Of a stretch of 64,000 nucleotides of DNA, positions 6,824 to 56,878 are shown piece after piece. The notes under the pieces are model-generated. The model saw only the letters and a list, made by a program, of their open reading frames with translations. It was not told where the DNA came from and ran no database searches. Position numbers and translations under genes: made by a program. Each line of letters opens with the position of its first letter. Position 1 is the first letter of the stretch. Source of the DNA: Halorarum halobium. GTDB taxonomy: Archaea; Halobacteriota; Halobacteria; Halobacteriales; Haloferacaceae. Location: assembly GCF_032116555.1 (NCBI RefSeq), contig NZ_CP134949.1:1426001-1490000 (forward strand), written 5' to 3'.

Positions 6824-6897
6824 GGGCCGGTAGCTCAGTTAGGGAGAGCGACGGACTCTTAATCCGTCGGTCGGGGGTTCAAATCCCTCCCGGCCCG
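6824..6897 (+). tRNA. tRNA-Lys(CTT)
   Basis: Acceptor GGGCCGG/CCGGCCC, anticodon arm ACGGA-CT-CTT-AA-TCCGT, GGTTCAAATCC T-arm; TATA-like TTTTACA about 30 nt upstream. Confidence 0.97.
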
Positions 6898-7016
6898 TGG
6901 AACGAGACGGTGAGCGGAGCGAACCCTCGAGTGGAACGGAGAGGGAGGGATTCGAACTAGACCGGGCGCGCGCAGCGAAGCGAGCACGTCCGGGCGTGGT
7001 TCAAATCCCCGGCCCG
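6898..7016 (+). repeat. tRNA-trailing repeat element, copy 1: REP-like hairpins plus inverted and direct copies of the tRNA-Lys 3' end
   Basis: Inverted copy GGGAGGGATTCGAAC at 6943-6957; direct copy GGTTCAAATCCCCGGCCCG at 6998-7016; GAGCGGAGCGA and AGCGAAGCGAG cores. Confidence 0.85.
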
Positions 7017-7205
7017 TTTTCTCTCGGACGCGGACGACGACCGACGAGCGGCGCCGCCGTCAACGGTAGGCGGAACCGGGGCCAGGTTCCAGCACGACCC
7101 CGCGTAGGGGTACTCCCCAAAAGCACCAGTTGACCACCGCTTCCTCCGAAGTACTCCCTCCCGGCCTGGCCAATCTACAAGTACAGTCGAGTGGTATGCG
7201 TACAC

Positions 7206-7358
7206 ATGGCTATCTGTCCCCACTGCGATCAGTCCATCACCGACTGGGCGGAGCGCATCGAGGGCGCGACCCACCCCCCGAGCACGCCGAAAGTGTGGAC
7301 GTGTCCGAACTGCGACGTCGTTCTCGGCATCTCCGACTGGGGGATGCGAGCGGAGTGA
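7206..7358 (+). CDS. 50-aa CPxC...CPxC zinc-finger micro-protein
   Basis: Manual translation: MAICPHCDQSITDWAERIEGATHPPSTPKVWTCPNCDVVLGISDWGMRAE*. Too short for the ORF track. Confidence 0.8.
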   Translation: MAICPHCDQSITDWAERIEGATHPPSTPKVWTCPNCDVVLGISDWGMRAE

Positions 7359-7406
7359 GTCCGGCGACTTCGCGTCGACGCGGCGCCGGATCGAACGACC
7401 CGCGGT

Positions 7407-7739
7407 TCAGTGTGCCGACATCCCGGAGACGACGTTGAGACAGTAGACGCCGGCGACGATCAGTCCGACGCCGACGACGCCTGCGGGGTCGAGCGTCTCG
7501 TCGAACACGACGACGCCGATGGCCGCGACGCCGACGATGCCGAGCGCCGCCCAGGTGCCGTAGACCACGCCGATGGGAAGGTCTTCCAGCGTGAGCGAGA
7601 CTAGGTAGAAGGCGGCGGCGTAGCCGGCGACGACGCCCAGGCTGGGCAGCGGGCGCGAGAAGCCCTCCGAGAGTTTGAGCGAGGTCGTTCCCAGCAGTTC
7701 CGAGAGGATCGCCACGCCGAGCAACACGTACGGGTTCAT
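7407..7739 (-). CDS. SMR family (EmrE/QacE) small multidrug efflux protein
   Basis: 110 aa, 4 TM segments, conserved Glu in TM1 (AILSELLGTTSLKLSEGF), PIGVVYGTWAALG. Confidence 0.93.
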   Translation of the reverse strand: MNPYVLLGVAILSELLGTTSLKLSEGFSRPLPSLGVVAGYAAAFYLVSLTLEDLPIGVVYGTWAALGIVGVAAIGVVVFDETLDPAGVVGVGLIVAGVYCLNVVSGMSAH

Positions 7740-7896
7740 ACACCCCGGTCCTCACAGGCGTCTGATAGGCGTTTCGAGAGCCCGTCGGCAGGATGGCTGG
7801 CCGCCGGACCGTGGCCGTCGTCGGACTCACTACTCGGGTCCGTCCCTGCGGTTCGGCCCAGACCGGCCCGTTCCGGCGGTTCGACCCCGACCGGTC

Positions 7897-8277
7897 TCAG
7901 TTCACGAACGGGTCCCGCTCCATCAACGCCAGCAACTCGGCGACGAGAACCAGTTCGGGCACGACCGCCTCCGCCGAAGCGGGACCGCCGAAACAGGACT
8001 GCTCGGTCGTGAACCCGACCCATCCGTCACGCACGCCCCACTCCAGGTCCGGCCCCTCCTCGACTCGCCACGAGGCGGCGTCACCCTCCAGCGACGTCCT
8101 GGTGAACCCGCGGTAGAACGTCGTCGCGGCGTCGCCCCCGACGACTGACTCGTCGAGGGGCGACGTCTCGCGCCCGAGCGCGGTCGGCGGGCCACAGACG
8201 ACCAGTGGCCGACCGTCGTGCTCCGTCGTGTAGACCACCTCCTCGGGGAGCACGTGTGGGGGCGTGGTGGAACTCAT
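7897..8277 (-). CDS. Hypothetical protein
   Basis: 126-aa acidic ORF with an ATG start filling the gap between genes. Confidence 0.6.
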   Translation of the reverse strand: MSSTTPPHVLPEEVVYTTEHDGRPLVVCGPPTALGRETSPLDESVVGGDAATTFYRGFTRTSLEGDAASWRVEEGPDLEWGVRDGWVGFTTEQSCFGGPASAEAVVPELVLVAELLALMERDPFVN

Positions 8278-8363
8278 CGGGCTGTTCTCCGCGGGAACGC
8301 GAATAAGGCTGTCGTCGGCAGTGACAGGGGCGTCTTCACGCAGTCCCGATTCTTCACGCAGTC

Positions 8364-8660
8364 TCAGTCGTCATCGCGCCCGCACGCGACGGAGACGTCG
8401 TAGGTGACCGGCAGCTCCTCACAGTCCATGATCTCGGCGATCTGTTCGGCGGTCAGGCTCCCCTCCTCGCGGGCCCGCCGGATGAGCCGCGCGACCCGCC
8501 CGCCCGCCGGCTGCAGGCGGTTGTCGCCGGCCATGAAACAGTAGTACTCCGCGGCGACGTCGATCGCCTGGGATCGGGAGCGCTCGCCCGTCGCCTCCTG
8601 GAGGGCGTCGTACACCGACTGGCGTCGGTCCGTCAGCCTGATCGTCGTCGCCTGGCTCAT
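8364..8660 (-). CDS. Small ribbon-helix-helix-like DNA-binding protein
   Basis: TTIRLTD beta strand followed by two helices (YDALQEATGE / RSQAIDVAAEYY). Confidence 0.7.
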   Translation of the reverse strand: MSQATTIRLTDRRQSVYDALQEATGERSRSQAIDVAAEYYCFMAGDNRLQPAGGRVARLIRRAREEGSLTAEQIAEIMDCEELPVTYDVSVACGRDDD

Positions 8661-8744
8661 ACGAGCAACTAGACGCGAAACGGCAAATATCCACAGTTGA
8701 CTGAAAGCGGCGTTTCAGCAACCGGGCCGCGCCGGACTCGCCGC

Positions 8745-9188
8745 TCAGCGTTCCGGCGCGTCCCCGAGCGCCTCCTCCCGGAGTCGTCGCCCCTCCGCCG
8801 AGTCGACCGAGAGGTCCGGAACCGGCGTCGGTTCGAGGGTTTCGTCGACGGCGACGAACACGAAGTACGACGCGGTCGTCTGCTCGCGCTCGCCCGTTCT
8901 GGGGTTCTCGCGGAAGGCGCGAAGTCGGACCCGGACGCTCGTCCTGCCCGTCGCGTAGGCGTACGAGTCGATGACGCAGGTGTCGCCCTGCGGGACCGGA
9001 CGCTCGAAGTCGAGGCGGTCGATGCTGGCGGTGACACACGACTCGCCGGCGAGCCGCATCGCCGACATCGCGCCCGTCTCGTCCATCCATCGTGCGACGT
9101 TGCCGCCGTGGGCGGTGCCGTAGTTGTTGGTGTCGTCCGGCTGGACGCGCTCGCGGTTCTCGATGCGCGTGTCGAGCAGGGTGACCAT
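8745..9188 (-). CDS. Acyl-CoA thioesterase (hotdog fold)
   Basis: PDDTNNYGTAHGG...WMDE, VTASID...F..PV, TGRTS motifs; start at ATG 9188. Confidence 0.93.
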   Translation of the reverse strand: MVTLLDTRIENRERVQPDDTNNYGTAHGGNVARWMDETGAMSAMRLAGESCVTASIDRLDFERPVPQGDTCVIDSYAYATGRTSVRVRLRAFRENPRTGEREQTTASYFVFVAVDETLEPTPVPDLSVDSAEGRRLREEALGDAPER

Positions 9189-9334
9189 GCTCGCCCTTTC
9201 GGGCGCGTCCGCTTGAAATCGAGCCATCGTCTCCCGCGTCCGCACCGCCGAGTTCGGACCTGGTTCCGGCCACCCTTGCCGCCTCACTCGTGCGGTTTCG
9301 ACGGACCTTTGACGGCGGTACTCCGAGCGCGACC

Positions 9335-10594
9335 GTGTCCCGCGACGCCGACCCGTCAGCGCTTCAGTTCTGGACGCTGTATCTCTCCCGGTTCGCCGGC
9401 GGGTTCGGGTCAATCACGCTCGTCATCCTCATCCCGAAACTGGCCCCGGAACTCGGGCTGGGCGGGGTCGGACTCGGCCTGCTGTACACCGCGTTCACCC
9501 TCGCCCAGACGCTCATGGTTGTCCCGCTCGCGTGGGCGGGCGACCGGTACGACAAGCGGCTCGTCCTGCTCGGGACGCTCGCGCTCGGCGTGCTCACGTA
9601 CGCCGCGTTCGGGTTCGTCACCACCGGACGGCAGCTGATGGCCGTCCGCGCGTTCCAGGGCGTCGTCTTCACCGGGATGGGGCTGATGACGCTCGCGCTG
9701 GTCGGCGAGCTCGCCACGAAGGGCACCCGTGCGAACCACATCGGGAAGGCGAACGCCGCCTCGTTCGCCGCGTCCATCGTCGGCGGCCTCTCGGCCGGCT
9801 TCCTCTACGACTACTTCGCGGGCGGCCGGGAGGTGTTCCTGCTCATCACCGCCCTGTACGTCGTCACGTTCGGGGCGACGGCGCTGCTCCTGTCTTCGGA
9901 CGACACGCGCATTCACGGGTTCCCGTTCTCGGACCTCGCGGTCAACCGGCGGATCCTCACGCTCACGTCCTTCCGCGCGCAGTACTCGGTCGCGGTCACG
10001 CTCGTCCGGAACTGGGTGCCGGTGTTCGCGGGCTACGCGCTCGCGCAGGGCGGGCTCGGCTACCCGGCCTTCGCGGTCTCGGTCATCACCGTCTCCGAGA
10101 AGTTCACCAACATGCTGCTCCAGCCGTTCACCGGCCGGCTCTCCGATCGGTCCGGTCGGTCGCTGTTCGTCTTCGCGGGCGGCGGCACGTACGGGGTCGT
10201 CGCGCTGCTCGTCCCGTTCACGCCGATGATCGGCGCCACGGTCGGTCTCCCCGAGAGCTACCCCATCGTCGGCGCGGTCTCGGCCGCCTTCCTCCCGCTC
10301 GTCGCGCTCAACTGCGGGCTGGGCATCGCCGACAGCTTCCGGGAGCCGGCCAGCATGGCGCTGTTCGCGGACGAGGGGAGCGACGGGGAGGGCGTCGCGT
10401 CGAGCTTCGGCATCCGCGAACTCGTGTGGCGGCCCGGGTCGGTGCTCGCGCCGGTCGCGGGCGGGTGGCTGATGGCCGAGATCGGGATGGACTCGGTGTT
10501 CTACGTCGGCGGCGCGTTCGCGGTGCTCGGGGCGCTGACGTTCCTCGGCATCCTCTGGCGTGCCCACGGCGCGGGTGCCCTCCGGGAGTGGTAG
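9335..10594 (+). CDS. MFS transporter
   Basis: About 12 TM segments, AGDRYDKR and GRLSDRSGR motif A; probable GTG start at 9335. Confidence 0.9.
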   Translation: MSRDADPSALQFWTLYLSRFAGGFGSITLVILIPKLAPELGLGGVGLGLLYTAFTLAQTLMVVPLAWAGDRYDKRLVLLGTLALGVLTYAAFGFVTTGRQLMAVRAFQGVVFTGMGLMTLALVGELATKGTRANHIGKANAASFAASIVGGLSAGFLYDYFAGGREVFLLITALYVVTFGATALLLSSDDTRIHGFPFSDLAVNRRILTLTSFRAQYSVAVTLVRNWVPVFAGYALAQGGLGYPAFAVSVITVSEKFTNMLLQPFTGRLSDRSGRSLFVFAGGGTYGVVALLVPFTPMIGATVGLPESYPIVGAVSAAFLPLVALNCGLGIADSFREPASMALFADEGSDGEGVASSFGIRELVWRPGSVLAPVAGGWLMAEIGMDSVFYVGGAFAVLGALTFLGILWRAHGAGALREW

Positions 10595-10633
10595 GGAGGG
10601 AAAATCCCGGCCGTCCGGCGGGTTCGACGTCGC

Positions 10634-11818
10634 TTACAGTTCGGCCGCGACGGTCTCGGTTCCCGCGCCCACGTCCACGTTCGCACCGTGGTCGCGGAGC
10701 GTCTCGCCGAGCGCGCTCGCGAGGAACGAGACGTTCCCCGGGCGGGCGGAGTGGCCCATGCAGCCGATGCGGAAGACGTCCCCCGAGAGGTCGCCGAGCC
10801 CGCCGGCGATCTCGAGGTCGTACTCCGAGAGCAGGTCGTCGATGACCGCGCCGTCGTCGACGCCGGCCGGGACGCGGACGGCGTTGAGACTCGGGAGCCA
10901 GAACTCGTCGGCGGCGTTCATCTCCAGCCCCATCGCCTCCACGCCGGCCTTCAGCGCGCCGGCGACGCGGCGGTGACGGCCCCACCGCTCCTCGATGCCC
11001 TCCTCGGCGACGAGACGGAGTGCCTCCCGGAGCGCGTAGACGTTGGTGATCGGTGCCGTGTGGTGGTACGCGCGCTCGTCGCCCCAGTACCCCTCCAGCA
11101 GCGAGAGGTCGAGATACCACGAGCGGGCCGGCTCCTCCCGGCTCAACACCTTGTCCATCGCGCGGTCGTTCAGGGTGAGCGGCGACGCGCCAGGCGGGCA
11201 CGAGAGACACTTCTGGGGGCCCGAGTAGGCGACGTCGACGTTCCAGTCGTCCACCCGTAGCTCCACGCCGCCCAGCGACGTGACGCAGTCGGCGACGACG
11301 TACGCGTCGTGGTCGTGCGCGATGGAGGTGAGTTCGGGGACGCTCGGCTGCAGCGCGCCGGTCGACGTCTCGGCGTGGACGAAGCCGAACACGTCGGGCT
11401 GGTGTTCGTCGAAGGCGTCCTGCACGTCGGCCGGGTCGAGCGGTTCGCCCCACGGCGCGTCGACCTCGGCGACCTCGCCGCCGGCGCGGCGGGCCATCTC
11501 GGCCATCCGGCCGCCGAAGTAGCCGTTCGTCGGGACGAGCATCGTCTCGCCCGGCTCGACGAGGTTGCCGATGGCGGCCTCCATCGACGCCGACCCCGTC
11601 CCCGAGACGGGAATCGTCCACCGGTTGTCCGTCCGGAACGTGTAGCGGAGCAGTTCCTGGGTCTCGTCCATCACGTCGATGAACGACGGGTCGAGGTGTC
11701 CGACGAGCGGGGTCGCCATCGCGCGGAGCACGCGCGGGTGAACGTCGCTCGGGCCGGGGCCCATCAGGGTTCGATCGGACGGCGTGAGTTCGCCGACGTC
11801 GGGTCGGTCCATGCTCAT
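10634..11818 (-). CDS. Class V PLP aminotransferase (alanine-glyoxylate/serine-pyruvate type)
   Basis: LMGPGPS, SGTGSASMEA, VHAETSTG, DCVTS, SGPQKCLSCPPG (PLP lysine), YHHTAP, FRIGCMG. Confidence 0.95.
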   Translation of the reverse strand: MSMDRPDVGELTPSDRTLMGPGPSDVHPRVLRAMATPLVGHLDPSFIDVMDETQELLRYTFRTDNRWTIPVSGTGSASMEAAIGNLVEPGETMLVPTNGYFGGRMAEMARRAGGEVAEVDAPWGEPLDPADVQDAFDEHQPDVFGFVHAETSTGALQPSVPELTSIAHDHDAYVVADCVTSLGGVELRVDDWNVDVAYSGPQKCLSCPPGASPLTLNDRAMDKVLSREEPARSWYLDLSLLEGYWGDERAYHHTAPITNVYALREALRLVAEEGIEERWGRHRRVAGALKAGVEAMGLEMNAADEFWLPSLNAVRVPAGVDDGAVIDDLLSEYDLEIAGGLGDLSGDVFRIGCMGHSARPGNVSFLASALGETLRDHGANVDVGAGTETVAAEL

Positions 11819-11914
11819 GGCCACCACGGGCCGGGGCAAAAGCGCCGCGCTTCCGGACGGTGCGGCCGCGTCCAACGGGGAACGCTTACCCGCGCCCCCT
11901 CGGAAGACGACGGT

Positions 11915-12781
11915 ATGACCGACGGGGACACCGACGCGGACGCCGGGTGGTTCGCCGGCGACGACCCGGTCGATCGCGTCCGCACCGGCAGCGCGAGTGC
12001 GCCCGCCGACTGGCCGGAACTGGCCGTGGAGGCGGGCGCCGCGAGCGACCGCGAGGACTACTACCGCCGACTCAAGGAGGCGACGACGGAAGCGGCGCGA
12101 GCGGCCGTCGCCGAGCGCGAGCGGGCAGACGACAGACAGCTCCTGCACGCCGTCCGCGCGATGGACGACGCGGACCGGACCGCGAACGAACTGTCGGAGC
12201 GGCTCGCGGAGTGGGCCGGCAGCGTCTACGACGAGTCCGGCTCGGGCGTCGAGTACGCCCGCGAGGTCGCCGGCCGCGAGCCCGACGGGCCGACCGAGGA
12301 GCGGGTCGGCTCGCTCGCCACCCGGATCGTCGAACTGACCGAGGAAGCACGCGACCTCGAAGCGTTCATCGAGTCCCGTGGGCCGGTGGCAGCGCCGAAC
12401 CTCTCGGCGCTCGCCGGTCCGGTGCTCGCCGCGCGGCTGATCTCGCTCGCGGGCGGACTCGAACCGCTCGCCAAGAAGCCGTCCGGGACGCTCCAGGTGC
12501 TCGGCGCGGAGGACGCGCTGTTCGCACACCTCCGTGGCCACGCGCCGTCGCCGAAACACGGCGTCATCTACACCCACGACTACGTCCGGGGAACGCGGGC
12601 CGAGGACCGCGGGTCGGCCGCCCGCGCGCTCGCCGGGAAGCTGACCATCGCGGCGAGAATCGACCACTACTCGGGCGACCTGCGCCCGGACCTCGAAGCC
12701 GACCTCGACGAGCGGATGCGGACCATCCGTGCGCGTGGTGAGGGTGGCGTCGACGGGAGTGAGGAGGCGACCGATGGATAA
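11915..12781 (+). CDS. nop5: Nop5/Nop56 C/D-box RNP protein
   Basis: APNLSALAG..LAARLISLAGG, QVLGAEDALF, SPKHGVIY, ALAGKLTIAARID. Confidence 0.95.
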   Translation: MTDGDTDADAGWFAGDDPVDRVRTGSASAPADWPELAVEAGAASDREDYYRRLKEATTEAARAAVAERERADDRQLLHAVRAMDDADRTANELSERLAEWAGSVYDESGSGVEYAREVAGREPDGPTEERVGSLATRIVELTEEARDLEAFIESRGPVAAPNLSALAGPVLAARLISLAGGLEPLAKKPSGTLQVLGAEDALFAHLRGHAPSPKHGVIYTHDYVRGTRAEDRGSAARALAGKLTIAARIDHYSGDLRPDLEADLDERMRTIRARGEGGVDGSEEATDG

Positions 12782-13406
12782 TCTGCCCGAGGGAGTGACG
12801 CGCCGCGAGTTCGACGGCCGCGACCGACTCTGTACGCGGGGTGAGCCGGTGTATGGCGAACCGACCGACGGCGACTGGCGAGTCTGGGACGCCTCCCGGT
12901 CGAAGCTGGGTGCGATGCTCGAACTGGGGATGGAGACGGGGCTCTCCGGCGGCGACTCGGTGCTGTATCTCGGCGCGGCGAACGGAACCACCGTGAGCCA
13001 CGTCGCCGACGTCGCCGGGCCGACCTACGCCGTCGAGTTCGCGCCCCGGCCCGTGCGGGACCTGCTGGCGGCGGCGGAGTCGCGCTCGAACCTGCTCCCC
13101 CTGCTGAAGGACGCCCGGCGCCCGGAGTCGTACGCCCACGTCGTCGAGTCGGACGTCGACGTGCTGGTCCAGGACGTGGCGACCCGCGGACAGGCGACCG
13201 TGGCGACCAGGAACGCCCGGTTCCTGTCCGGGGACGGGAGGCTCGTGCTCGCCGTCAAGGCGCGCTCTGAGGACGTCGCCGCCTCGCCCGAGTCCGTGTT
13301 CGCCGACGTGCGGACGGAGCTCTCGGAGGCCTACGAGATCCTGGGGGAGTCGCGGCTCGATCGCTTCCACGCGGACCACCTCGGCATCGTGGCGCGGCCA
13401 CGGTAG
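12774..13406 (+). CDS. flpA: Fibrillarin-like rRNA/tRNA 2'-O-methyltransferase
   Basis: VYGE, RSKLGA, VLYLGAANGTTVSH, YAVEF, QDVA; overlaps nop5. Confidence 0.96.
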   Translation: MDNLPEGVTRREFDGRDRLCTRGEPVYGEPTDGDWRVWDASRSKLGAMLELGMETGLSGGDSVLYLGAANGTTVSHVADVAGPTYAVEFAPRPVRDLLAAAESRSNLLPLLKDARRPESYAHVVESDVDVLVQDVATRGQATVATRNARFLSGDGRLVLAVKARSEDVAASPESVFADVRTELSEAYEILGESRLDRFHADHLGIVARPR

Positions 13407-13674
13407 CAGTTGCCCGGCGGCGTCGGTGCCACGTCCGTGACCAGCACGTCCCGGTTTCTCTGCTCGGCCTCCCGGCTACGCGGACTACGGGTTCGGCCAG
13501 CCACGCCGAACCACCGGCGTCCGTGCGTGCTGGCCCCGGATTCGTATTTGAAGCTTCGCCCGTGAACCGGCGGTACGCTGTGACACGCCGAACCGTCGGC
13601 GCTCGTGCGCGGAAAGCGCACGACGTGAGCCGCTATCCCGGGATATATACCACCCCGTGCCCAACCCCGGTTCG

Positions 13675-14823
13675 ATGGAGCGAGGTTCGCGGGAGGCGTT
13701 CACCCGGCTCGGGACTCTCGGCGTCGAGGAGGAGTTCTACATCGTCGACGACACGGGGCGGCCCGTCTCGGGCACCGACGACCTCGTCTACGGCGACCCG
13801 CCCGAGTCGGACCTCCTCGCGGACCGCATCGACCACGAACTGTTCAAGTGTACGATCGAGACGCAGACGCCGCTCATCGAGAACCCCGGTGACGTGGAAC
13901 CGAACGTCGTCGCGGTCCGGGAAGCGCTCGTCGAACACGCCGAGCGTCACGGCTATCGGATCGCCGGTGCGGGCCTCCACCCGGCGGCGAAGTGGCGCGA
14001 ACTCGATCACGCGGAGAAGCCACGCTATCGGGCCCAGCTCGACCGGATCCAGTATCCACAGCACCGAAACACGACCGCCGGACTCCACGTCCACGTCGGC
14101 GTCGACGACGCCGACAAGGCGGTGTGGATCGCCAACGAACTCCGCTGGCATCTCCCACCGTTGCTCGCGCTGTCGGCCAACTCGCCGTTCTGGAACGGGT
14201 TCGACACCGGGCTCGCTTCCGCCCGTGCCAAGATATTCGAGGGGCTCCCGAACACTGGGATGCCCACGCGCTTTGCGGACTTCGAGGCGTTCGACCGGTT
14301 CGAGCGGCGGATGATGGCCCACGGGTCGATCGACGACCGCGGCGAACTCTGGTACGACGTCCGCCCGCACACCGACCACGGGACCGTGGAGGTCCGTGCC
14401 CCCGACGGGCAGTCCGACCCGGCGGTCGTGTCGCCGTTCGTCGAGGTCGTCCACGCGCTCGTGCTGGATCTCGCGGCACGGTACGAGGACGAGGCGACGC
14501 CGAGCGACGACGGGTCGACCGTCGGCGGAGCCGGCGGTCGCGCCGCCGCCGACGGCGCCGTCGGGTCGTCGTCGGACGGGCTCCGACGCGAACTCCTCGA
14601 CGAGAACAAGTGGCGGGCGATGCGGTACGGGCACGGAGCGTCGTTCATCGACCGCGACGGCGACTCGGTCGTCGATCTCGCCACCGTCGTCGACGGGCTG
14701 GAGGAACGACTGGGCGTCGAGTCGCTGTCGACCCTGTACGAGCGGGAATCCGGGGCCGAACGACAGCGTCGGATCCACGAGGAGGGCGGCTTCGACGCGC
14801 TCCGTGAGTCGCTTCTGGTTTAG
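13675..14823 (+). CDS. gshA: Glutamate--cysteine ligase (GCS2/YbdK family)
   Basis: [46 protein letters not shown]. Confidence 0.92.
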
Positions 14824-14877
14824 TCCTCGCCGCGCCGACGGGTTTTTTCCGACGGAGTTCCGAGCGCCTACAGAACC

Positions 14878-15519
14878 ATGGCTTCCGAGGACGGCCCGGA
14901 GGACGCGGGCGAGGACGACGACGGACGGGTGAGCGTCGGCGCGGAGGGCGCACGGGAGCAGTTGCGGGAGGCGACCGAGCGGATCGGCGAGAGCGCGGGC
15001 GACGTCGCGGAGAGCTTCGACGAGCGCGCCATCGACCTGCTGTCGTGGCTACTGGACACCGAGACTCGAGCGCGGATCTACGTGTTCCTCCGCGAGAACC
15101 CGGACTCGACCAGCCAGGAGGTCGCCGACGGGACCGGACTCTACCCGAGCACCGTCCGGGAGGCGCTCGCGGAGCTTCACGAGGACGAGACCGTGACGCG
15201 ACGAAAGCGGGAGGCGACGGGGGCCGGCAACAACCCCTACGAGTACGAGGCCATCGCGCCGTCGACGCTGGTCGAGGGCGTCGTCGAACAGGTCCAGACG
15301 GAGCTCAACACCGTGTTCAACCTCGACCGTCACCTGGGCCGGGACGCCTCCGACGAGACGACGCCGGTCACCATCTCGGTCGAGACCGCCGACGGCGACG
15401 CCCGGAACGAACCGGGTGGCCGGGGCGACGGCGGCGGTCCGGAGCGTCGCGGCGACCGGGAGGACCGGGGCGAGCGTTCCGGGACCCACGGGGACGAACC
15501 GCCCGCCGACGACTCGTAG
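14878..15519 (+). CDS. Winged-HTH (TrmB-like) transcription regulator
   Basis: ARIYVFLRENPDSTSQEVADGTGLYPSTVREALAEL, G.NPYEYEAIAP. Confidence 0.85.
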   Translation: MASEDGPEDAGEDDDGRVSVGAEGAREQLREATERIGESAGDVAESFDERAIDLLSWLLDTETRARIYVFLRENPDSTSQEVADGTGLYPSTVREALAELHEDETVTRRKREATGAGNNPYEYEAIAPSTLVEGVVEQVQTELNTVFNLDRHLGRDASDETTPVTISVETADGDARNEPGGRGDGGGPERRGDREDRGERSGTHGDEPPADDS

Positions 15520-15555
15520 CGCCCCATTTATGGTCCGGCGGGCAAACGGAGTTCC

Positions 15556-16050: not shown

Positions 16051-16051
16051 C

Positions 16052-16711: not shown

Positions 16712-16796
16712 GCGCGGGTAGCCAAGCCAGGCCAACGGCGCAGCGCTTAGGACGCTGTCCCATAGGGGTCCGCCGGTTCGAATCCGGTCCCGCGCA
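16712..16796 (+). tRNA. tRNA-Leu(TAG)
   Basis: Acceptor GCGCGGG/CCCGCGC, anticodon arm CAGCG-CT-TAG-GA-CGCTG, long variable arm, GGTTCGAATCC. Confidence 0.97.
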
Positions 16797-16911
16797 GTGA
16801 CCGTCGCGAGCGGAGCGAGCGGCGTGAACGAGCAGGACCGAATTCGAAGGAGACGAGGCGCGCACGGTGGAGCGAGCAGGTCTCGGGGTGGTTCGAATCC
16901 GGTTTCCGTGC
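16797..16911 (+). repeat. tRNA-trailing repeat element, copy 2 (tRNA-Leu-specific arms)
   Basis: Inverted copy GGACCGAATTCGAA at 16835-16848; direct copy GGTTCGAATCCGGTTTCCGTGC at 16890-16911; GAGCGGAGCGAG core. Confidence 0.82.
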
Positions 16912-16974
16912 TTGGGGGATGAAGTTGCGACTGAGAGGGAACACCTAATGACGACCGCAAAATCCCCCACTTCT

Positions 16975-17350
16975 GTCGGCTCGGTGCGGCCGCTGTGCTC
17001 CTCGCGCTCACTCGCTTCGCTCGTTCGCGCTGTGGTGCTTGTCGGTCCGCGCTTACGGAAGACTCGCTTCGCTCGACTTCCGAATTCTCGTTCGCTTCTC
17101 GCTCACGAGAGCTTCCCCGACGGAAGCGGCCCCTTTCAGTCCCACCCGACCGCGACCGTACGGCACGGCCACATGCCTCCCTTACCTCGGAGCACGCTCC
17201 TCGGAACTCACCCTCGCTTCGCTCGCGTGAACAGCCGATTCGCTCGGTTGGCTCGCTTCGCTCGCCGCCCTCCACTCATCCCTCGCGCGGTTCGGCCGCC
17301 CACGGGGGGCGGCCGCCGCGCGCCACCGCACACCGCCCAGCCAACCGCCA
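16975..17350. repeat. Intergenic cluster of REP-like palindromic repeats
   Basis: Four exact CTCGCTTCGCTCG copies (17011, 17063, 17213, 17252), several inside stems; CCCTTTCAGTCCCACCC core at 17131-17147; CACCGC runs at the end. Confidence 0.8.
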
Positions 17351-47647: not shown

Positions 47648-47947
47648 GCTCGAACGGACGCGCCCGGTCCACTAAGGCAGTCCGCTCCGCAGGGGCGGGA
47701 CTTATAAAGCCTGTCGGACGCCCGGCTGCCGTGAGGCTGACGCGTGCGACTTCTCCCACGGGGGGCACAAGGCTTTTAGGTGTTAACAACCCACATGGCA
47801 TTAAGCCTCCCCTCCGGAGGAGGGAGGTCGACCCCGCTCGCCCCGCTGCTCTGGTCGCATCCCCGCCGTCACGTCGCGTGGGTAGGGTCGCACACGGTCG
47901 GCGCTGTATCGACGGAACTCGTCGAACACGCGGACACACAAACCACA

Positions 47948-50020
47948 ATGACCGGAGCCATGAAAACCCTCGAGGAGCTCAGTGATCGGTACAAGGAGAC
48001 GGTGCCCTCGGACCTGCGCGAGGCCAAGTCGTTCGACTGGTACCTCTCGGAGGTCCACGAGCACCCCCGGATCGCGCGCAACGCACACCAGCGCGTCGCC
48101 GACATGTTCGACCACTACGGCACGCGCTACGACGAGGACGCGGGCGTCGTGGAGTACCAGCTCGCCAGCGAGGACCCGCTGCACGACGGCGAGAACAACT
48201 TCTACGGCAGGGAGGTCCACGAGTCGATCCACGAGTTCGTCAACAAGGTGAAGTCGGGCGCCCGCGGGCTCGGTCCCGAAAAGCGGATCAAACTCATGCT
48301 CGGCCCCGTCGGGTCGGGCAAGAGCCACTTCGACTGGCTCGTGCGTCGCTACTTCGAGGACTTCACCCGAACCGACGAGGGGCGACTGTACACGTTCCGC
48401 TGGACCAACCTCTGTGAGGTCATCCCCGACCAGGACCCCGCCGACGACACGGTCCGGTCCCCGATGAACCAGGACCCGCTCGTCTTACTGCCCCAGCCCC
48501 AGCGCGACGAGGTGATCGAGAACCTCAACGCGTCGCTCGATGCGCCCTACACCATCCGCAACGAGCAGAGCCTCGACCCGGCGTCGGGCTTCTACATGAA
48601 CGAACTGCTCGCCGAGTACGATGACGACCTCCAGGCGGTGCTCGAGAACCACGTCGAGATCGTCAGGCTCGTCGCCGACGAGAACCGTCGCCGCTGCGTC
48701 GAGACGTTCGAGCCGAAGGACAAGAAGAACCAGGACGAGACCGAACTCACCGGCGACGTCAACTACTCCAAACTGGCCGTCTACGGCGAGAACGACCCGC
48801 GCTCGTTCGACTACGCGGGGGCGTTCTGTAACGCCAACCGCGGCATCTTCAGCGGCGAGGAGCTGTTGAAGCTCCAGCGCGAGTTCCTCTACGACTTCCT
48901 GCACGCCTCCCAGGAGCAGACCATCAAGCCGCGGAACAACCCGCGGATCGACATCGACCAGGTGATCGTCGGCCGGACGAACATGCCCGAGTACCGGGAC
49001 AAGAAGGGCGACGAGAAGATGGAGGCGTTCAACGACCGGACCAAGCGGATCGACTACCCGTACGTCCTCGAGTACGACGAGGAGGCCGAGATCTACCGGA
49101 AGATGCTCCGGAACGCCGACGTGCCCGACATGCACATCGAGCCCCACGCCATGGAGATGGCGGGGCTGTTCGGCGTGCTCACCCGCATCGAGGAGCCCTC
49201 CGACGGCGGCGTCACGCTCGTCCAGAAGGCGAAGGCCTACAACGGGGAGATCGACGAGACCGACGACGTCGACGAGCGGAAGCTCCGGGAGGACGGCGAC
49301 GCAGTCGCCGACATCGCGGAGGGGATGGAGGGCGTCTCCGCGCGCTTCATCGGCGACGAGATCGCCGAGGCGATCATGGACGCGACCCACCGCGGGCGCG
49401 GCTACCTCTCGCCGCTCTCGGTGTTCACCCACTTCGAGGAGAACCTGGAGAACCACGGCTCGATCCCCGAGGAGAACCTCGACCGGTACGAGCGCTACCT
49501 CGAACTCGTCCGCGACGAGTACCGCGAGCGCGCCATCGAGGACGTCCGCCACGCGCTCGCCTACGACGTCGAGGAGATCCAGCGCCAGGGCGAGAAGTAC
49601 ATGGATCACGTGATGGCGTACATCGACGGGGCGACCGTCGAGGACGACATCACCGGCCGGGAGCAGGAGCCCGACGAGACGTTCCTGCGTTCCGTCGAGG
49701 AGAAACTGGAGATCCCCGGCGACCGGAAGGACGACTTCCGCCAGGAGGTCGCAAACTGGGTGTCCCGACGCGCCCGCGAGGGCGTGAGCTTCGACCCGCA
49801 GGACAACGACCGCCTGCGCCGCGCGCTCGAGCGGAAGCTCTGGGAGGACAAGAAGCACAACATCAACTTCTCCGCGCTGGTCTCGGCCGGGGAACTGGAC
49901 GACGACGAGCGGAGCGCCTGGGTCGACGCGCTCCACGAGCAGGGCTACTCGCGGGAGGGGGCCCGCGAGGTGCTGGAGTTCGCCGGCGCGGAGGTGGCAA
50001 AGAGCGAACTGGAGGACTGA
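47948..50020 (+). CDS. prkA: PrkA/YeaG-family AAA+ protein (copy 1)
   Basis: LGPVGSGKS Walker A, DPRSFDYAGAFCNANRG, EELLK, EAFNDR, GMEGVSARF. Confidence 0.94.
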   Translation: MTGAMKTLEELSDRYKETVPSDLREAKSFDWYLSEVHEHPRIARNAHQRVADMFDHYGTRYDEDAGVVEYQLASEDPLHDGENNFYGREVHESIHEFVNKVKSGARGLGPEKRIKLMLGPVGSGKSHFDWLVRRYFEDFTRTDEGRLYTFRWTNLCEVIPDQDPADDTVRSPMNQDPLVLLPQPQRDEVIENLNASLDAPYTIRNEQSLDPASGFYMNELLAEYDDDLQAVLENHVEIVRLVADENRRRCVETFEPKDKKNQDETELTGDVNYSKLAVYGENDPRSFDYAGAFCNANRGIFSGEELLKLQREFLYDFLHASQEQTIKPRNNPRIDIDQVIVGRTNMPEYRDKKGDEKMEAFNDRTKRIDYPYVLEYDEEAEIYRKMLRNADVPDMHIEPHAMEMAGLFGVLTRIEEPSDGGVTLVQKAKAYNGEIDETDDVDERKLREDGDAVADIAEGMEGVSARFIGDEIAEAIMDATHRGRGYLSPLSVFTHFEENLENHGSIPEENLDRYERYLELVRDEYRERAIEDVRHALAYDVEEIQRQGEKYMDHVMAYIDGATVEDDITGREQEPDETFLRSVEEKLEIPGDRKDDFRQEVANWVSRRAREGVSFDPQDNDRLRRALERKLWEDKKHNINFSALVSAGELDDDERSAWVDALHEQGYSREGAREVLEFAGAEVAKSELED

Positions 50021-52416
50021 TGACCGACTACATCGACCGCGCCGACCGCGCGCTCGCCGGTGCCTACGAGCCGCCGATGAGCATCGCGGAGTACGTCGAG
50101 CAGGTGTTCGAGCGGCCGGAGACGGCCGCCGGTTCCGCCGCGTACCTGCTCGGCGCCATCGAGTCGCTCGGCACCCGCACGGTCGTCGAGGAGGGGGAGA
50201 CGCGCGAGCGCTTCCGCTTCTTCGACGACCCGCACAACGACGGCGAGCACGCCGTGCTCGGGAACACGGCCGTCCTGAACGCGTTCGTCGACGACCTCAG
50301 AACCCTGGCTGCGGGCCGCGGTAAGGACGAGAAGATCCACTGGTTCGACGGGCCGACCGCGACCGGCAAGTCCGAACTGAAGCGCTGTCTCGTCAACGGC
50401 CTGCGCGAGTACTCGAAGACCGACGAGGGCCGACGTTACACCGTCGAGTGGAACATCGCCGACGGGACCGACGCCGGAAGCCTCGGGTACGGTCCCGCAC
50501 AGGACCACGAGGACGACTGGTACGAGAGCCCCGTCCGGAGCCACCCGCTCTCGGTGTTCCCCGACGACGTGCGACGTGACCTGCTCGCGGAACTGAACGA
50601 GCGAGCCGACCCGGAGTTCCCGATCCGCGTCGACGCCGGCATGGACCCGTTCAGCCGCGAGGCGTACGACTACCTCGAGGAGGAGTACCGCCGTGCTGGA
50701 CGGAGCGACCTGTTCTCGGCGGTCACCGACGACCGCCACCTCCGGGTGAAAAACTACGTCGTCGACGTCGGCGACGGCATCGGCGTCCTCCACGCGGAGG
50801 ACGACGGTAGCCCGAAGGAGCGGCTCGTCGGCTCGTGGATGCCGGGGATGCTCCGCGAACTCGACAGTCGCGGCCGGAAGGACCCGCGGGCGTTCAGCTA
50901 CGACGGCGTGCTCTCGCAGGGCAACGGCCTCCTCACGGTCGTCGAGGACGCCAGCCAGCACGCCGATCTGCTCCGGAAACTGCTGAACGTCCCCGACGAG
51001 AAGCGGGTCAAACTGGACAAGGGGATCGGGATGGATCTGGACACCCAGCTCGTCGTCATCTCGAACCCCGACCTCGACGCCGAACTCGACCAGTTCTCCG
51101 ACCGGAACGGCCGCGACCCGCTGAAGGCGCTCAAGCGCAGGCTCGACCGCCACGAGTTCCGCTATCTCACCAGCATCTCGCTGGAGACCGAACTGGTCCA
51201 CCGGGAACTCACCGACGAGACCGAGGTGTGGGAGACGGTCGCCGCCGAGACGACGGGATCGGAGGCCGCCCGCGGACCTCGTGCCGTCGGCGGCCCCGGC
51301 CCCGGCGCCGAGTACGACGGCGGGGCCGACGCGGCGCGAGCCGACGTGGAGCGTGCCGACGTGGACGACCTGGACGCCGTCCGCGAGGCGGTCGACGAGC
51401 GCGTCCGCGCGCCGCTGTTCATGACCGTGCGCGACGAACGGGGGCGGACGACCGAGCGTGAACTTGCGCCCCACGCCGTCGAGGGCGCGGCGACCTACAG
51501 CGTCCTCACGCGGCTGGACGGCGAATCGCTGCCGGCCGACCTCTCGCTGGTCGACAAGGCGCTGCTGTACGAGAACGGGTTCCTGCGGGAGGGCGACGAG
51601 CGCGTCGACGCCGACGAGTTCGACCTGGACGGCGAGGACGGCGTCCACGGCATCCCCGTGACCTACACCCGGGACGTCATCGCGGACCTGCTCCACGAGC
51701 GGTCCGAGCGTGCCCACCCCGAACTCGACGTGGAGTCGGTGCTGATGCCCGAGGACGTGCTCGACGCGATGGCCGAGGGGCTCGACGACGCGCCGGTGTT
51801 CTCCCGCGCGGAGGCCGCCGAGTACGAGAACCGGCTCGCCGAGGTGAAAGAGTACGTGTTCGACAGACAGGAGCAGGACGTGCTCGACGCGGTGCTCGCG
51901 GACAAGGGCGTCCCCGAGGACACCGTCGCGGAGTACGTCGAGCACGTGTTCGCCTGGGACGCCGGCGAGCAGGTGCGGACCGACCGCGGCGAGGTCGACC
52001 CCGATCCGCTCCTCATGCAGGTGTTCGAGACCGAACACCTCGGGCGGTTCGAGGAGGCAGACTACGACGGCACCGACCCGACCTCGCCGGTCGCCCGCTT
52101 CAGGTCCGAGAAGGTCATCACCGCGCTGAACCGCTACGCGTGGGAGCACCGCGACGAGGACTTCGCCGTCTCGGACGTCGACCTCTCGGAGATCCCGGTC
52201 ATCCGCGAGGTGATCGACACCCACTCGTGGGACGACGTGAAGCGCATCTACCCCGACTTCGACCCGACGCGGTGGGACGACCCGCCCGCCGACACCGAGA
52301 CCGAACGGGTGAAGGAGCGAACCGTCGATCACCTCCGCGAACGCGGCTACACCGCCGCATCCGCGGAGCTGACCGGCCGGGCCGTCCTCAAGGAGGTGAG
52401 CGCACGATGGGACTGA
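50020..52416 (+). CDS. PrkA/YeaG-family AAA+ protein (copy 2, divergent)
   Basis: DGPTATGKS Walker [16 protein letters not shown]; translationally coupled to copy 1. Confidence 0.9.
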
Positions 52417-53717
52417 GAGAGGATCTCGAGCGGTTCCGCGCGGTCGGCGAGGAGCGCCGGCCGGACCTGGCCGAGTTCATCCGCGAGGGCGACCTGGCGG
52501 GCGGCAGCGACACGGTTCGCATCCCGGTGAAGCTGGTCGATCTCCCGAAGTTCGAGTACGACCGGCGCGACATGGGCGGCGTCGGCCAGGGCGAGGGCGG
52601 CACGCCAGAGCCCGGGCAGCCCGTCGACGTCCCCGGCGACCCCGAGGACGGCGACGACGACGGCGACGAGGCCGGCGACGGGCCGGGCGAACACGGCTAC
52701 TACGAGATGGACCCGGCCGAGTTCGCGGAGGAACTCGACGAGACGCTGGGGCTGGATCTCGAACCCAAGGGCAAGCGCATCGTCGAGGAACTGGAGGGCG
52801 ACTTCACCGAACTCGCCCGCGCCGGCCCGAACTCCACGCTCGACTTCGAGACGCTGTTCAAGCGCGGGCTGAAGCGGAAGCTCGCGACCGACTTCGACGA
52901 GTCGTTCGTCCGGGAGGCCTGCAAGGTCGAGGGTGCCAGCGCGCGGGACGTGTTCGAGTTCTGCCGCGAGGAGAACGTCCTCGTCTCGCTCGCCTGGGTC
53001 GAGGAGGCGATGACCGACGTCGCCGACGAGCGGGGCGCGTGGGACTCCTTCGAACAGGTCCGCGAGGCGGTCGAGCGCGAACCCGTCACCGACCGAATCC
53101 GGCGGGACGGGCTCCGTGAGGTGCCATTCCGCAGCGAGGACGAGCGCTACCGCCACCCCGAGGTCGTCGAAAAGAAGCGGAAGAACGTCGTCGTCGTCAA
53201 CATCCGCGACGTCTCCGGGTCGATGCGCCAGCGCAAGCGCGAACTCGTCGAGCGGGTGTTCACGCCGCTCGACTGGTATCTCACCGGGAAGTACGACGAG
53301 GCGGAGTTCCGCTACGTCGCCCACGACGCGGAGGCCTGGGAGGTCGAGCGGGGCGAGTTCTTCGGCATCCGCTCGGGCGGCGGGACGCGCATCTCCAGCG
53401 CGTACGAACTCGCCGCGGAGATCCTCGAGGAGTACCCGTGGCACGAGTGGAACCGATACGTGTTCGCCGCGGGTGACTCGGAGAACTCCAGCAACGACAC
53501 CGTCGACAGCGTCGTCCCGCTGATGCGCGAACTCGACGCGAACCTCCACGCCTACGTGGAGACACAGCCCGGCGGCGGTGCCGTGAACGCGACCCACGCC
53601 GAGGAGGTCGAGCGCGAACTCGCCGACCGGGACAACGTCGCCGTCACCCGCGTCGGCGGCCCCGAGGACGTGACCGACGCCATCTACGACATCCTCAGCA
53701 CGGAGGAGGAGACGTGA
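52407..53717 (+). CDS. YeaH/YhbH family (DUF444) VWA-domain protein
   Basis: [34 protein letters not shown]. Confidence 0.92.
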
Positions 53718-53739
53718 CCAGCAACGCCGAGGTGCGATC

Positions 53740-55725
53740 ATGACAACGAACCAGAACCGACACGCCCGCCGCGAGGCGGCGCGGCTGACCGAACCGACCG
53801 AGAGGGCCCGGGAGCTGGCCGAACGGCTCGGCCTGCGGCCGTACCCGGTGAACTACTGGGTCGTCGACTACGACGAGATGAACGAGCTCATCGCGTACGA
53901 CGGCTTCCAGACGCGCTACCCGCACTGGCGCTGGGGGATGAAGTACGACCGCCAGCGCAAGCAGGACGCGTTCGGCATGGGGAAGGCGTTCGAGATCGTC
54001 AACAACGACAACCCCTGCCACGCGTTCCTCCAGGAGTCGAACGGCCTCGCCGACCAGAAGGCGGTCATCACACACGTCGAGGCCCACGCGGACTTCTTCC
54101 GGAACAACGAGTGGTTCGCCCGGTTCGCGGGCGACCGCGAGGAGCCCGCGGCCGCGGCGATGCTGGAGCGACACGCCAGCACCATCGCCGGGTTCATGGC
54201 GGACCCGGAGATCGACCGCGGCGAGGTCGAGCGGTTCATCGACGCCGTGCTCTGTCTGGAGGACACCATCGACCAGCACCGGGCGCTCGCCGAGGAGCGC
54301 GGCGGCGAGTTCGAGGAGGACGTCGCCGACATCGAGGAGCGGCTCGACCGGCTCGGGCTCTCGCCGGAGGTCCGCGACCAGGTGTTCGACGAGGAGTGGG
54401 TGTCGGCCCGCGAGAGCGAGGAGAGCCCGAGCGTGCCGCGCCCGGACGTGCTCGCGTTCCTCCGCGAGCACGGCGAGCGGTACGACGAGGACGAGGGCAA
54501 GGCCGAGGAGCGCGAGCCCTGGATGGACGAGACGCTGGAACTGCTCCGACGCGAGGCGTACTACTTCGCGCCACAGAAGCTGACGAAGGTGATGAACGAG
54601 GGCTGGGCGGCCTACTGGGAGTCGCTGATGATGGCCGAGGAGGGGTTCGCCACGACCGACGAGTTCCTCACCTACGCCGACCACCAGTCGCGCGTCCTCG
54701 GCTCGAAGGGGCTGAACCCGTACAAGCTGGGCAAGGAGCTCTGGGAGTACATCGAGAACACCACGAACCGCCGCGAGGTGGTGGACAAACTGCTTCGCGT
54801 GGACGGCATCACCTGGCGGAGCTTCCACGACGTGGTCGACTTCGAGGCGGTCGAGGAACTGCTCGCGCCCGACGAGATGGTCGACGAGATCCGGTCCGAC
54901 ACGCTGGACCGGCTCGACCCCGAGGATCCGCGGGTGGACGCGGACGGGCTCACGGCGGCGCGCGACGGGGAGGTTGACGTCGACCGCTATCCCTGGTACG
55001 TGCTCACCTCCGACGGCCTCGCGGAGCGACACTTCTCGCTTGCCAAGCCGGCCAATCGGGGGTTCCTCTCGCGCGTCGGACGCTCGGAACTCGAACGGCT
55101 CGCCCGGTACATGTTCGACGACTCGAAGTACGCGAGCGTCGAGGAGGCGCTCGCCGAGGTCGACTACGGCCTCGGCTGGGACCGGATGCGTGAGGTCCGG
55201 GAGAGCCACAACGACGTGACGTTCATCGACGAGTTCCTCACCTCGGAGTTCGTCACCGAGGGCAACTACTTCACCTACGAGTACTCGCGGGCGGCGGGCG
55301 GCTATCGCGTCTCCAGCACCGACCCCGAGGACGTGAAGAGGAAGCTCCTGCTCCGGTTCACGAACTTCGGCAAGCCCAGCGTCGCCGTCTTCGACGGCAA
55401 CTACGCCAACCGCGGCGAACTGCTGCTCGGGCACCGGTACAACGGCGTCGCGCTCGACGTCGAGCAGGCCGAGCGGACGCTCGAACGCGCGTTCGAGCTC
55501 TGGGGCCGCCCGGTGAACCTCGCCACCATCGTCACCGAGTACGACGAGCACGAACTCGAGGTGGCGAGCCGCCGCGGCTACGAGCCGGCCGGCGAGGAGG
55601 TCGGCACGCTCATCAGGTACGACGGTGCCGAGATCGAGCACCACGACCTCGACCCGGACCTGGAGGAGCGTATCGGCGCGGAGGGCGTCGATTACGACAC
55701 GAAGCCCGAGGAGTGGCTCGCGTAG
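53740..55725 (+). CDS. SpoVR family protein
   Basis: RYPHWRWG..Y, EIVNN.NPC.AFL, HVEAHADFFRNN, TKVMNEGWA, NPYKLG. Confidence 0.95.
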   Translation: MTTNQNRHARREAARLTEPTERARELAERLGLRPYPVNYWVVDYDEMNELIAYDGFQTRYPHWRWGMKYDRQRKQDAFGMGKAFEIVNNDNPCHAFLQESNGLADQKAVITHVEAHADFFRNNEWFARFAGDREEPAAAAMLERHASTIAGFMADPEIDRGEVERFIDAVLCLEDTIDQHRALAEERGGEFEEDVADIEERLDRLGLSPEVRDQVFDEEWVSARESEESPSVPRPDVLAFLREHGERYDEDEGKAEEREPWMDETLELLRREAYYFAPQKLTKVMNEGWAAYWESLMMAEEGFATTDEFLTYADHQSRVLGSKGLNPYKLGKELWEYIENTTNRREVVDKLLRVDGITWRSFHDVVDFEAVEELLAPDEMVDEIRSDTLDRLDPEDPRVDADGLTAARDGEVDVDRYPWYVLTSDGLAERHFSLAKPANRGFLSRVGRSELERLARYMFDDSKYASVEEALAEVDYGLGWDRMREVRESHNDVTFIDEFLTSEFVTEGNYFTYEYSRAAGGYRVSSTDPEDVKRKLLLRFTNFGKPSVAVFDGNYANRGELLLGHRYNGVALDVEQAERTLERAFELWGRPVNLATIVTEYDEHELEVASRRGYEPAGEEVGTLIRYDGAEIEHHDLDPDLEERIGAEGVDYDTKPEEWLA

Positions 55726-55964
55726 TCCGACCCCTTTTCCGTGGGTTTCGATCCGATCGAAACGAAACCTCCGATCGGTGAGTCGCGTCCCGGCGGGGCA
55801 TCGTCGTCCCACCGAGGCCCGCTCCGTTGTCGGCCGAGCTAGACCCGTCGCGCGATTCGGGGGTATCTCCGTCTTCCACCGGGGCGATCTCATCCTCCCG
55901 TTGCCAGATTCACAGCTGTTTTATCACCGCTCCGTCATCTCCCGGCCATGTGGGGTAGTGCCAG

Positions 55965-56564
55965 ATGTCACTGACGGACGCGTGGAGACCGGAGAACAGA
56001 CGCGAGCGGTACAGTCTGATGGCGGATGCGGCGGATCGGAAGTTTACGACCGGCGCGGTCGCCGTCCCACTGATACTCCCGATCGCGGGCTACCTCTCGA
56101 ACGACCCGCGAATCCTGTTCACCGTCCACCTCTTTCTCGGGGCGTTCTGGTTCGGTACAGCGGTGCTGGGGGCGGTCGTTCTCGGCCCCGTGATGGGGAG
56201 TCTCTCCCGGGAAGCGAACGCCGAGTTCGCCGAGGGGTTCGTGCCGAAGATGACGTTCCTCATGGAACCGCTCTCGATCGGCGTCGTCGGGTCCGGTATC
56301 GGCCTCGCCGGGTTGATGGGGCTGTGGGACTCCCCGACGCCCGCTCTCTGGACGTCACTCGTCCTCGCCGTCGCACTCCTCGTTCTCGGCTTCGGACCGC
56401 TGCACAAGTTCACCGTCGGAATGTTCGACGAGATCGCCGCACAGGAGACGGATCACGAGCGTCTTGCCGATCTCAACCGGAAGTATGGCATGCTGAGCAT
56501 GGTCGAACTCGTGTTGATGGTTGCGATCGTCGTCTCGATGTCCGGCCTTCGCTGGGGTTTCTAG
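55965..56564 (+). CDS. Hypothetical membrane protein
   Basis: About 5 TM segments, HLFLGAFWFG. Confidence 0.75.
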   Translation: MSLTDAWRPENRRERYSLMADAADRKFTTGAVAVPLILPIAGYLSNDPRILFTVHLFLGAFWFGTAVLGAVVLGPVMGSLSREANAEFAEGFVPKMTFLMEPLSIGVVGSGIGLAGLMGLWDSPTPALWTSLVLAVALLVLGFGPLHKFTVGMFDEIAAQETDHERLADLNRKYGMLSMVELVLMVAIVVSMSGLRWGF

Positions 56565-56684
56565 CGCCGGTTCGTCACCCGAAGGGGAACGGGCGACGTC
56601 TCCCCGAACAGGACGCGCTCGCTTCGCACTCGGTCCCTCCACGCTCTTCCTGCGCTTCAGCTCGTCACTTCGTTCCTCGCAGAA

Positions 56685-56803
56685 TGCTCGGTCAGGGATT
56701 GGAACCACACCGAGACGGTCGCCTCGCTTCGCTCGACGCCGCGTCTCGTCTACTTCAAATCCCCTACCTGGGCGTGTTCTTCCTCACTCCGTTCGTCAGA
56801 ACA
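56685..56803 (-). repeat. tRNA-trailing repeat element, copy 3 (tRNA-Glu-specific arms)
   Basis: Direct copy at 56685-56706 (21/22 identical to the tRNA end 56804-56825); inverted copy TTCAAATCCCCTACC at 56754-56768; CTCGCTTCGCTCG at 56723-56735. Confidence 0.88.
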
Positions 56804-56878
56804 TGCTCGGTCAGGGATTTGAACCCTGGTCGTCGGCTCGAAAGGCCAACATGATTGGCCGGACTACACCAACCGAGC
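56804..56878 (-). tRNA. tRNA-Glu(TTC)
   Basis: Reverse complement reads GCTCGGTTGGTGTAGTCCGGCCAATCATGTTGGCCTTTCGAGCCGACGACCAGGGTTCAAATCCCTGACCGAGCA. Confidence 0.97.

Follow-up and report, generated by a model that had tools for sequence, protein, structure and literature searches.

Why should three different tRNA genes on one stretch of the Halorarum halobium chromosome, those for tRNA-Lys(CTT), tRNA-Leu(TAG) and tRNA-Glu(TTC), each be followed by a short unit of the same design whose arms resemble the particular tRNA in front of it? The stretch, here called the window, comprises 64,000 nucleotides (positions 1,426,001 to 1,490,000 of NZ_CP134949.1), and the units were pointed out in a first-pass annotation made from the letters of the DNA. 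We found that the units are real, that they occur class-wide in Halobacteria and that they are apparently undescribed in archaea; they are an archaeal variant of the kind represented by the tRNA-linked repeats (TLRs) of Escherichia coli and not a new category. That they were inserted serially at the tRNA genes by some route is quite likely. The specific explanation we favour, with a probability of about 0.45, is that gene-less cassettes of about 124 bp insert serially at tRNA genes as folded single-stranded DNA by means of a borrowed tyrosine recombinase.

Behind each of the three tRNAs the order is a spacer hairpin with a linker (H1), an inverted copy of the T-arm, a core hairpin (H2) and a direct copy of the tRNA 3′ end (the tail). 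On the forward strand, the called tRNA-Lys(CTT) gene (6824..6897) is followed by H1 with the mini-hairpin GA-GC-GGA-GC-GA (6898..6942), the inverted arm (6943..6957), H2 (6958..6997) and the direct copy (6998..7016), from which 3 nt are deleted. The tRNA-Leu(TAG) gene (16712..16796), called on the same strand, is followed by H1 (16797..16834), the inverted arm (16835..16848), H2 (16849..16889) and a direct copy (16890..16911) which is exact to position 16903 (14 nt) and decayed beyond it. On the reverse strand, the called tRNA-Glu(TTC) gene (56804..56878) precedes H1 with the mini-hairpin GA-AC-GGA-GT-GA (56765..56803), an inverted T-loop copy (56754..56764), H2 (56707..56753) and a direct copy (56685..56706) matching at 21 of 22 positions, with one change in the T-loop. 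Behind this direct arm lies another hairpin on the same strand (56647..56684), similar to the H1 that opens units elsewhere and, judging from this similarity, likely the remnant of an older unit. The three units and the five tRNAs of the window were thus as described in the first-pass annotation, and tRNA-Ser(GCT) and tRNA-Leu(CAG) carry no unit, as it had stated. A search of the window against Rfam returned the tRNAs only, with no family match for the units, and the units of six array loci gave no match at E-values up to 1.

Elsewhere in the genome, four further full units are located behind Lys-TTT, Gly-TCC, Ser-GGA and Met-CAT, and partial units behind Arg-CCG, Arg-CCT and Thr-CGT. By a strict rule, a full unit follows 6 of the 46 tRNAs. 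The observation that operon-embedded tRNAs lack the unit is true, but most free-standing tRNAs lack it as well. The arms were scored against 47 tRNA tails (45 ARAGORN calls, at least one of them doubtful, and two intron-containing tRNAs added manually). At all seven full units the direct arm fitted the cognate tail best. With the inverted arm, the cognate tail came first at four units, second at two and fifth at Lys-CTT, where the Lys-TTT tail fits better than the unit's own; the inverted arm of the Lys-TTT unit is perfect across 19 nt. The claim of locus-specific arms holds for the direct arms; the window copies are partly decayed, and the inverted arms are far less cognate. A profile built from the seven cores gave eight matches in the genome below an E-value of 1e-4, seven of them within 80 nt of a tRNA end; the eighth follows a short tail copy next to an integrase, 9.4 kb away from tRNA-Val(CAC). 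GNA mini-hairpins together with core modules form 142 clusters genome-wide, 8 of which are near tRNA ends, and a dispersed palindromic repeat copy containing them is present in the window at 16950-17350, on the strand opposite to the Leu unit. Trailers of a different structured type follow Leu-GAG (G000:C1:1570641) and Leu-CAA (1700421); the former is conserved in all three congeners compared, and the latter ends with a short copy of its own tail in both genomes read. At G000:C1:3077070-3077232, a tRNA-Gly(TCC) call of divergent sequence stands behind a doubtful Arg-like call that has a T-loop; the two are possibly a foreign or decayed tRNA pair.

The units are by no means confined to this species. 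Matches to a pattern of inverted plus direct T-loop copies were found in 135 of 151 Halobacteria genomes, with none for the reversed control, although a pattern-negative genome does not equal an element-free one. At the level of the phylum, 54 of 61 Halobacteria and 2 of 240 other Halobacteriota were positive; in the latter two (L481 and L482, genomes G376 and G373), three 177-bp tandem units of the same design lie downstream of tRNA-Ala genes. A scan of species genomes yielded at least 120 stretches, and among the 80 listed, 79 were from Halobacteria and one from Woesearchaeota. The 131 matches came from 121 loci, and 111 of them had a tRNA in the sense orientation within 260 nt, with 27 named anticodons represented; by eye, the remaining 20 were mostly accounted for by intron-containing tRNAs, contig ends or array tails. 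In metagenomes, whose samples may overlap with the species genomes, 103 of 131 matches had a tRNA within 260 nt; of the other 28, 19 had a tail copy upstream and 9 a short flank. In a congener, at least 25 divergent tRNA genes form an array on a 149-kb contig (L280, G001:C4:45500-60500), with units behind 0 of 25.

The direct arm was analysed in 98 tRNA-proximal units, i.e. the 109 of 111 with a readable T-loop minus 11 later array members. It matched the adjacent tRNA at a mean of 9.9 of 11 tRNA-specific bases, compared with 4.9 for other tRNAs as the control, so that arm identity is higher to the adjacent tRNA than to the others, as had been proposed. At least 10 of 11 bases were matched in 73 of the 98 units and in 70 of 89 metagenome loci. 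The copy follows its own genome: when the own tail was compared with the same-anticodon tail of another species, the own tail won in 302 of 332 pairs, lost in 16 and tied in 14, and lineage-specific changes in the T-loop of Lys-CTT are mirrored in the direct arm. In the 73 near-perfect units the copy spans position 53/54 to 73 (20-21 nt, no CCA). Identity is absent 5′ of position 53 and 3′ of 73, the 5′ T-stem is uncopied, and behind tRNAs with A52 the copy carries A in only 9 of 26 cases. A templated copying step, required according to the earlier argument, is not needed for the direct arm, which spans exactly the segment that duplication upon insertion would produce.

The inverted arm behaves differently. 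It tracks the T-loop purine in 91 of the 98 units (84 of 89 in the metagenomes), also follows rare loops such as TTCGACT and TTCAATT, and is cognate at positions 63-65 (27% versus 3%) and 70-73 (20% versus 5%) but not at 66-69 (8% versus 6%). Position 62 is tracked imperfectly, with mismatches in 54 of 201 genomes. (A count of AGATT/ATCT in 157 of 201 genomes is inflated by matches apparently inside tRNA-Ser(CGA) and was not used as a prevalence.) Nine or more of the 11 bases match in only 3 of the 98 units, and units with a perfect direct arm do no better (4.5 versus 4.7). The inverted arm is thus not a fresh copy, contrary to the templated copying put forward in the first-pass annotation, and a fold-back copy followed by decay was rejected. 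Because it is cognate at 63-65 and 70-73 only and gains nothing beside perfect direct arms, the inverted arm reads as a built-in paired-bubble-paired structure and not as a decaying copy. A retroviral-type primer-binding site was ruled out, the pairing being centred on the T-loop and not on the 3′ end.

The arrangement of the units at a locus speaks for their serial arrival. The median unit measures 124 bp (range 97-219), one to three units stand at a locus within the short flanks read, and tandem arrays mix different cores. In 17 arrays the direct arm of the tRNA-proximal unit was the better one in 11, equal in 6 and worse in none. Whole units are present or absent between congeners. In G079, an extra complete unit with exact junctions stands between tRNA-Gly and a unit that is identical in G110 and G124, and behind tRNA-Met an extra proximal unit is present in G199 and G047 as compared with G154 and G117. 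Among three congeners (46, 40 and 40 tRNAs read), 9 of the 12 positive tRNAs scored in just a single genome under a strict rule, which overlooks decayed units. The modules differ in how widely they are shared among tRNAs: cores at least 90% alike are found on different tRNAs in 19 of 27 cases, linkers only in 2 of 13. Array L335 has a single H1 with two different cores. In another case, one H1 type is common to units behind Gly-TCC and Ser-TGA (L091, L178).

The sequence of the hairpins suggests the form in which the units may act. Their loops conform to GA-NN-GNA-NN-GA, and the stems covary: GC/GC occurs in 47 core stems, AC/GT in 25 and cross-combinations in 9, the pattern having fixed part of the 3′ side, while the H1 stems, which were unconstrained by the pattern, are GC/GC in 23 and AC/GT in 14 cases. 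Among 140 cores (of 248 distinct), 74 show full pairing of the outer stem, compared with 7% for shuffled partners, a comparison in which related cores are not independent. All four bases occur at the centre of the GNA loop. GCGNAGC and GCGNNAGC are described, in the available part of PMC13037366, as mini-hairpins that are extra-stable in DNA, weaker as RNA and present at single-strand origins. Since GNA triloops tolerate any middle base, the loop signature points to a DNA-type fold rather than an RNA one.

According to the explanation we favour, an excised unit would consist of the tail copy, H1, the inverted arm and H2, and would fold into a dumbbell. The tail and the inverted arm would pair across the T-loop, forming an attP-like duplex capped by the two GNA mini-hairpins. 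A single strand exchange at position 53/54, where the T-loop has its left edge, followed by replication, would then complete the insertion, as with attP(+) of the CTX phage, and the old tail would be displaced distally and decay. The likeness to a folded single-strand attP is suggested because the left boundary lies at the T-loop edge, the loop has its complement and two hairpins flank the inverted pair. H2 cores could be swapped between units at the tail/inverted-arm duplex, which would place near-identical cores behind different tRNAs, while the half made up of the tail, H1 and the inverted arm would stay adapted to one tRNA. The recombinase would be borrowed from the host or a virus. The sequences themselves show the anatomy of the units, their cognate arms and boundaries, the polarity of the arrays, the gain or lack of whole units and the covariation of the stems; mobility as circles, a single-stranded working form and the class of the recombinase are predicted by this model.

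Several points weigh against it. Both the T-loop arms and a portion of the core loop were required by the search patterns and are therefore ascertained. Integrase hits were obtained in only 4 of 160 loci (tblastn, four integrase queries), two of which were the sources of the queries. No circle, transcript or joint was found in three read runs, which, with contigs of other organisms and a word share of 0.05, are evidence neither way. Viral contigs gave one weak match, not at a tRNA, and plasmids gave one match. A crossover in the T-loop would leave the donor tail in the tRNA, so that spread to a new tRNA would require an extra step. The folding z-scores of the window cores as DNA are modest and alike in this respect on both strands (-1.0 to -2.5), in an energy model that omits G-A pairs. 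Deletion between direct repeats could also account for the presence and absence of units, and gene conversion that depends on distance could imitate the polarity of arrays; these processes could yield part of the turnover but not, alone, the mixed arrays. The genome contains eight integrase-domain matches over the cut-off, none tied to units. An autonomous partner was rejected, the three longer regions considered having turned out to be two ordinary integrase islands and two separate tRNAs. Two short phage matches to an E. coli TLR were found.

The same cassettes may instead be inserted after the tRNA 3′ end by staggered nicks or target-primed synthesis, through a nuclease or a HUH-type enzyme, with the direct arm as a 20-21 bp target-site duplication and the inverted arm as a guide to the T-loop. 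We consider this possible but less probable than insertion by a tyrosine recombinase. No donor tail is needed by such a route, which would account for the spread over the 27 named anticodons with exact cognate tails, and the duplication stops at the discriminator. The non-tRNA palindromic family of 142 clusters, with the same mini-hairpins and core modules, also resembles REP/PATE repeats. PATEs are, however, reported without target duplication in the part of PMC3119063 available, and the Y1 nuclease expected of a HUH-type mechanism, named as a starter in the first-pass annotation, does not track the units. No Y1_Tnp domain was found in this genome (99.9% complete). When the lists of Y1 and pattern genomes were matched by eye, all 16 pattern-negative genomes had Y1 and all 49 Y1-less genomes were pattern-positive (p 0.0015, related genomes not being independent). 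A HUH/Y1 mobiliser was therefore rejected, being absent from the genome and without a positive association.

Alternatively, the units would be old tRNA trailers kept in step by template switching or gene conversion and serving as a pre-tRNA processing switch or a small RNA. Their strand is indeed fixed to the sense of the tRNA (the H1 motif in this orientation 15 times versus 2), and RNA folding pairs the inverted arm with the true T-arm, the perfect 19-nt arm of Lys-TTT and the decayed direct arms of displaced units being likewise in line with such a role. The TLRs of E. coli rRNA operons are transcribed and bind Hfq and CsrA according to the text of PMC8144298 consulted. We nevertheless regard this reading as unlikely: the units are patchy among congeners under the strict rule, they form mixed arrays and are gained or lost whole, triloops of the GNA type with a free middle base fit DNA, and the bubble in the inverted arm persists in fresh units.

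Very improbable is the proposal, in line with the decoy idea of the first-pass annotation, that the direct copies are att decoys which draw integrating viruses away from the tRNA. In its favour, integrases are stated in the accessible parts of PMC5861418 and PMC8371274 to target the 3′ ends of haloarchaeal tRNAs, and one island (L333) sits between two units in an order that is not readable. Against it, all three readable islands, at tRNA-Val(CAC) here, at an Ala-type site in G069 and at tRNA-Glu(CTC) in G078, entered the true tRNA despite the unit, which was displaced or duplicated, and position 52 and the 5′ T-stem are uncopied. The island in tRNA-Val(CAC) (G000:C1:2354640-2364207) is 9.4 kb long and of lower GC content, with an integrase split over two open reading frames and a transposase-like open reading frame; the unit it displaced has a decayed direct arm. 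The 4.9-kb island L334 (G078:C14:13500-21500), carrying small membrane and hypothetical open reading frames, has an att repeat that extends from the anticodon loop of tRNA-Glu through the whole unit, so that the unit is present at both ends. Such inclusion in both att repeats is a possible route between hosts.

The first-pass annotation knew of no characterised system with this design, but the TLRs of E. coli have it, with an inverted arm, mini-hairpins and a direct copy. As described in PMC8144298, as far as its available text goes, TLRs (the 178-bp repeats of tyrT and those of lys, proK and rrA/B/F) number 22 at ten loci, where one to five of them follow a tRNA or rRNA gene; they end in 18-19 bp identical to the 3′ end of that gene, and their function is unknown. 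The main text of that paper contains none of the words "inverted", "mobile", "duplication" and "insertion" and no mention of an inverted arm or a mini-hairpin. The TLRs of E. coli K-12 also have a cognate inverted arm (10 of 10 positions for Tyr and, by eye, 9 of 10 for lysT/W/Y/Z), and a mini-hairpin scaffold of the GAGCGAAGCGAG type is common to the Tyr, Lys and Pro units and partly to rrnB. The haloarchaeal units likewise adjoin the tRNA 3′ end and carry a cognate tail copy, an inverted arm and mini-hairpins; on inspection, the mini-hairpin motif and the inverted arm are alike in the two groups, whereas the position of the junction differs. The E. coli copy starts at about position 58-59 and includes CCA, whereas the haloarchaeal copy runs from 53/54 to the discriminator. 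In addition, the haloarchaeal core is one hairpin closed by a full T-loop duplex, and mixed arrays follow tRNAs of at least 27 anticodons throughout an entire class of archaea. In the trailer of E. coli rrnB (L351:455-480), the 5S-linked TLR has an anti-T-loop word like the haloarchaeal inverted arm beside the mini-hairpin scaffold, with no preceding tRNA.

Other known systems share single features with the units. Like attP(+) of the CTX phage (IMEX), an inverted site pair that forms a single-strand double hairpin with unpaired bases and undergoes one strand exchange (PMC3442271, part of the text), and like the single-stranded hairpin site attC of integrons (PMC5737381, part of the text), they appear from their sequence to hold an inverted pair foldable on one strand, with which the covariation and the strand bias agree, and form tandem arrays; unlike these, they target the tRNA T-loop and not dif or attI, and are cargo-free at about 124 bp. 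Islands of tyrosine integrases (the SNJ2 family, whose core is given as 14 bp in the part of PMC5861418 available, and others) also duplicate a tRNA 3′ segment and stack at the same gene, and may carry a unit in the att repeat (L334), but they have an integrase and cargo and no inverted tail copy, whereas the units are 97-219 bp long without an integrase. PATE, REP, BIME and MITE elements are short non-coding palindromic DNA too, and the core modules also occur in the genome's dispersed palindromic repeats; in contrast to them, the units show no fixed terminal repeats or Y1 association, target tRNAs strictly and have a 20-21 bp duplication. The earlier conclusion that a MITE with fixed ends cannot be involved is borne out, since the arms vary from one tRNA to another and the inverted one lies inside the unit. 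In the literature searched, to which subscription journals and supplements did not belong, TLRs were the only related description, none of it archaeal. The tRNA passages of PMC3119063, PMC7002104, PMC3184786 and PMC5737381 do not describe the units; PMC3119063 also has repeat tables, and PMC5737381 motif files, that may bear on novelty.

We tentatively extend the model across domains, though we hold this extension to be rather doubtful: protein-less, dumbbell-forming single-stranded mini-elements would hijack tyrosine recombinases, insert serially at tRNA T-loops and swap hairpin modules, and would have given rise to the E. coli TLRs as well as to the haloarchaeal, Woesearchaeota and methanogen-side units. 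Since 1978 TLRs have stood as an E. coli curiosity without a function; the archaeal version, with its class-wide range, its polarity, its turnover by whole units and its DNA mini-hairpin signature, makes a mobile-element hypothesis testable in tractable haloarchaea. The units reshape the integration sites of proviruses and can mislead programs that call att sites and proviruses. If a folded strand of 124 bp is indeed inserted by a borrowed recombinase, the units would rank with the smallest site-specific mobile DNAs known and might serve as an integration tool.

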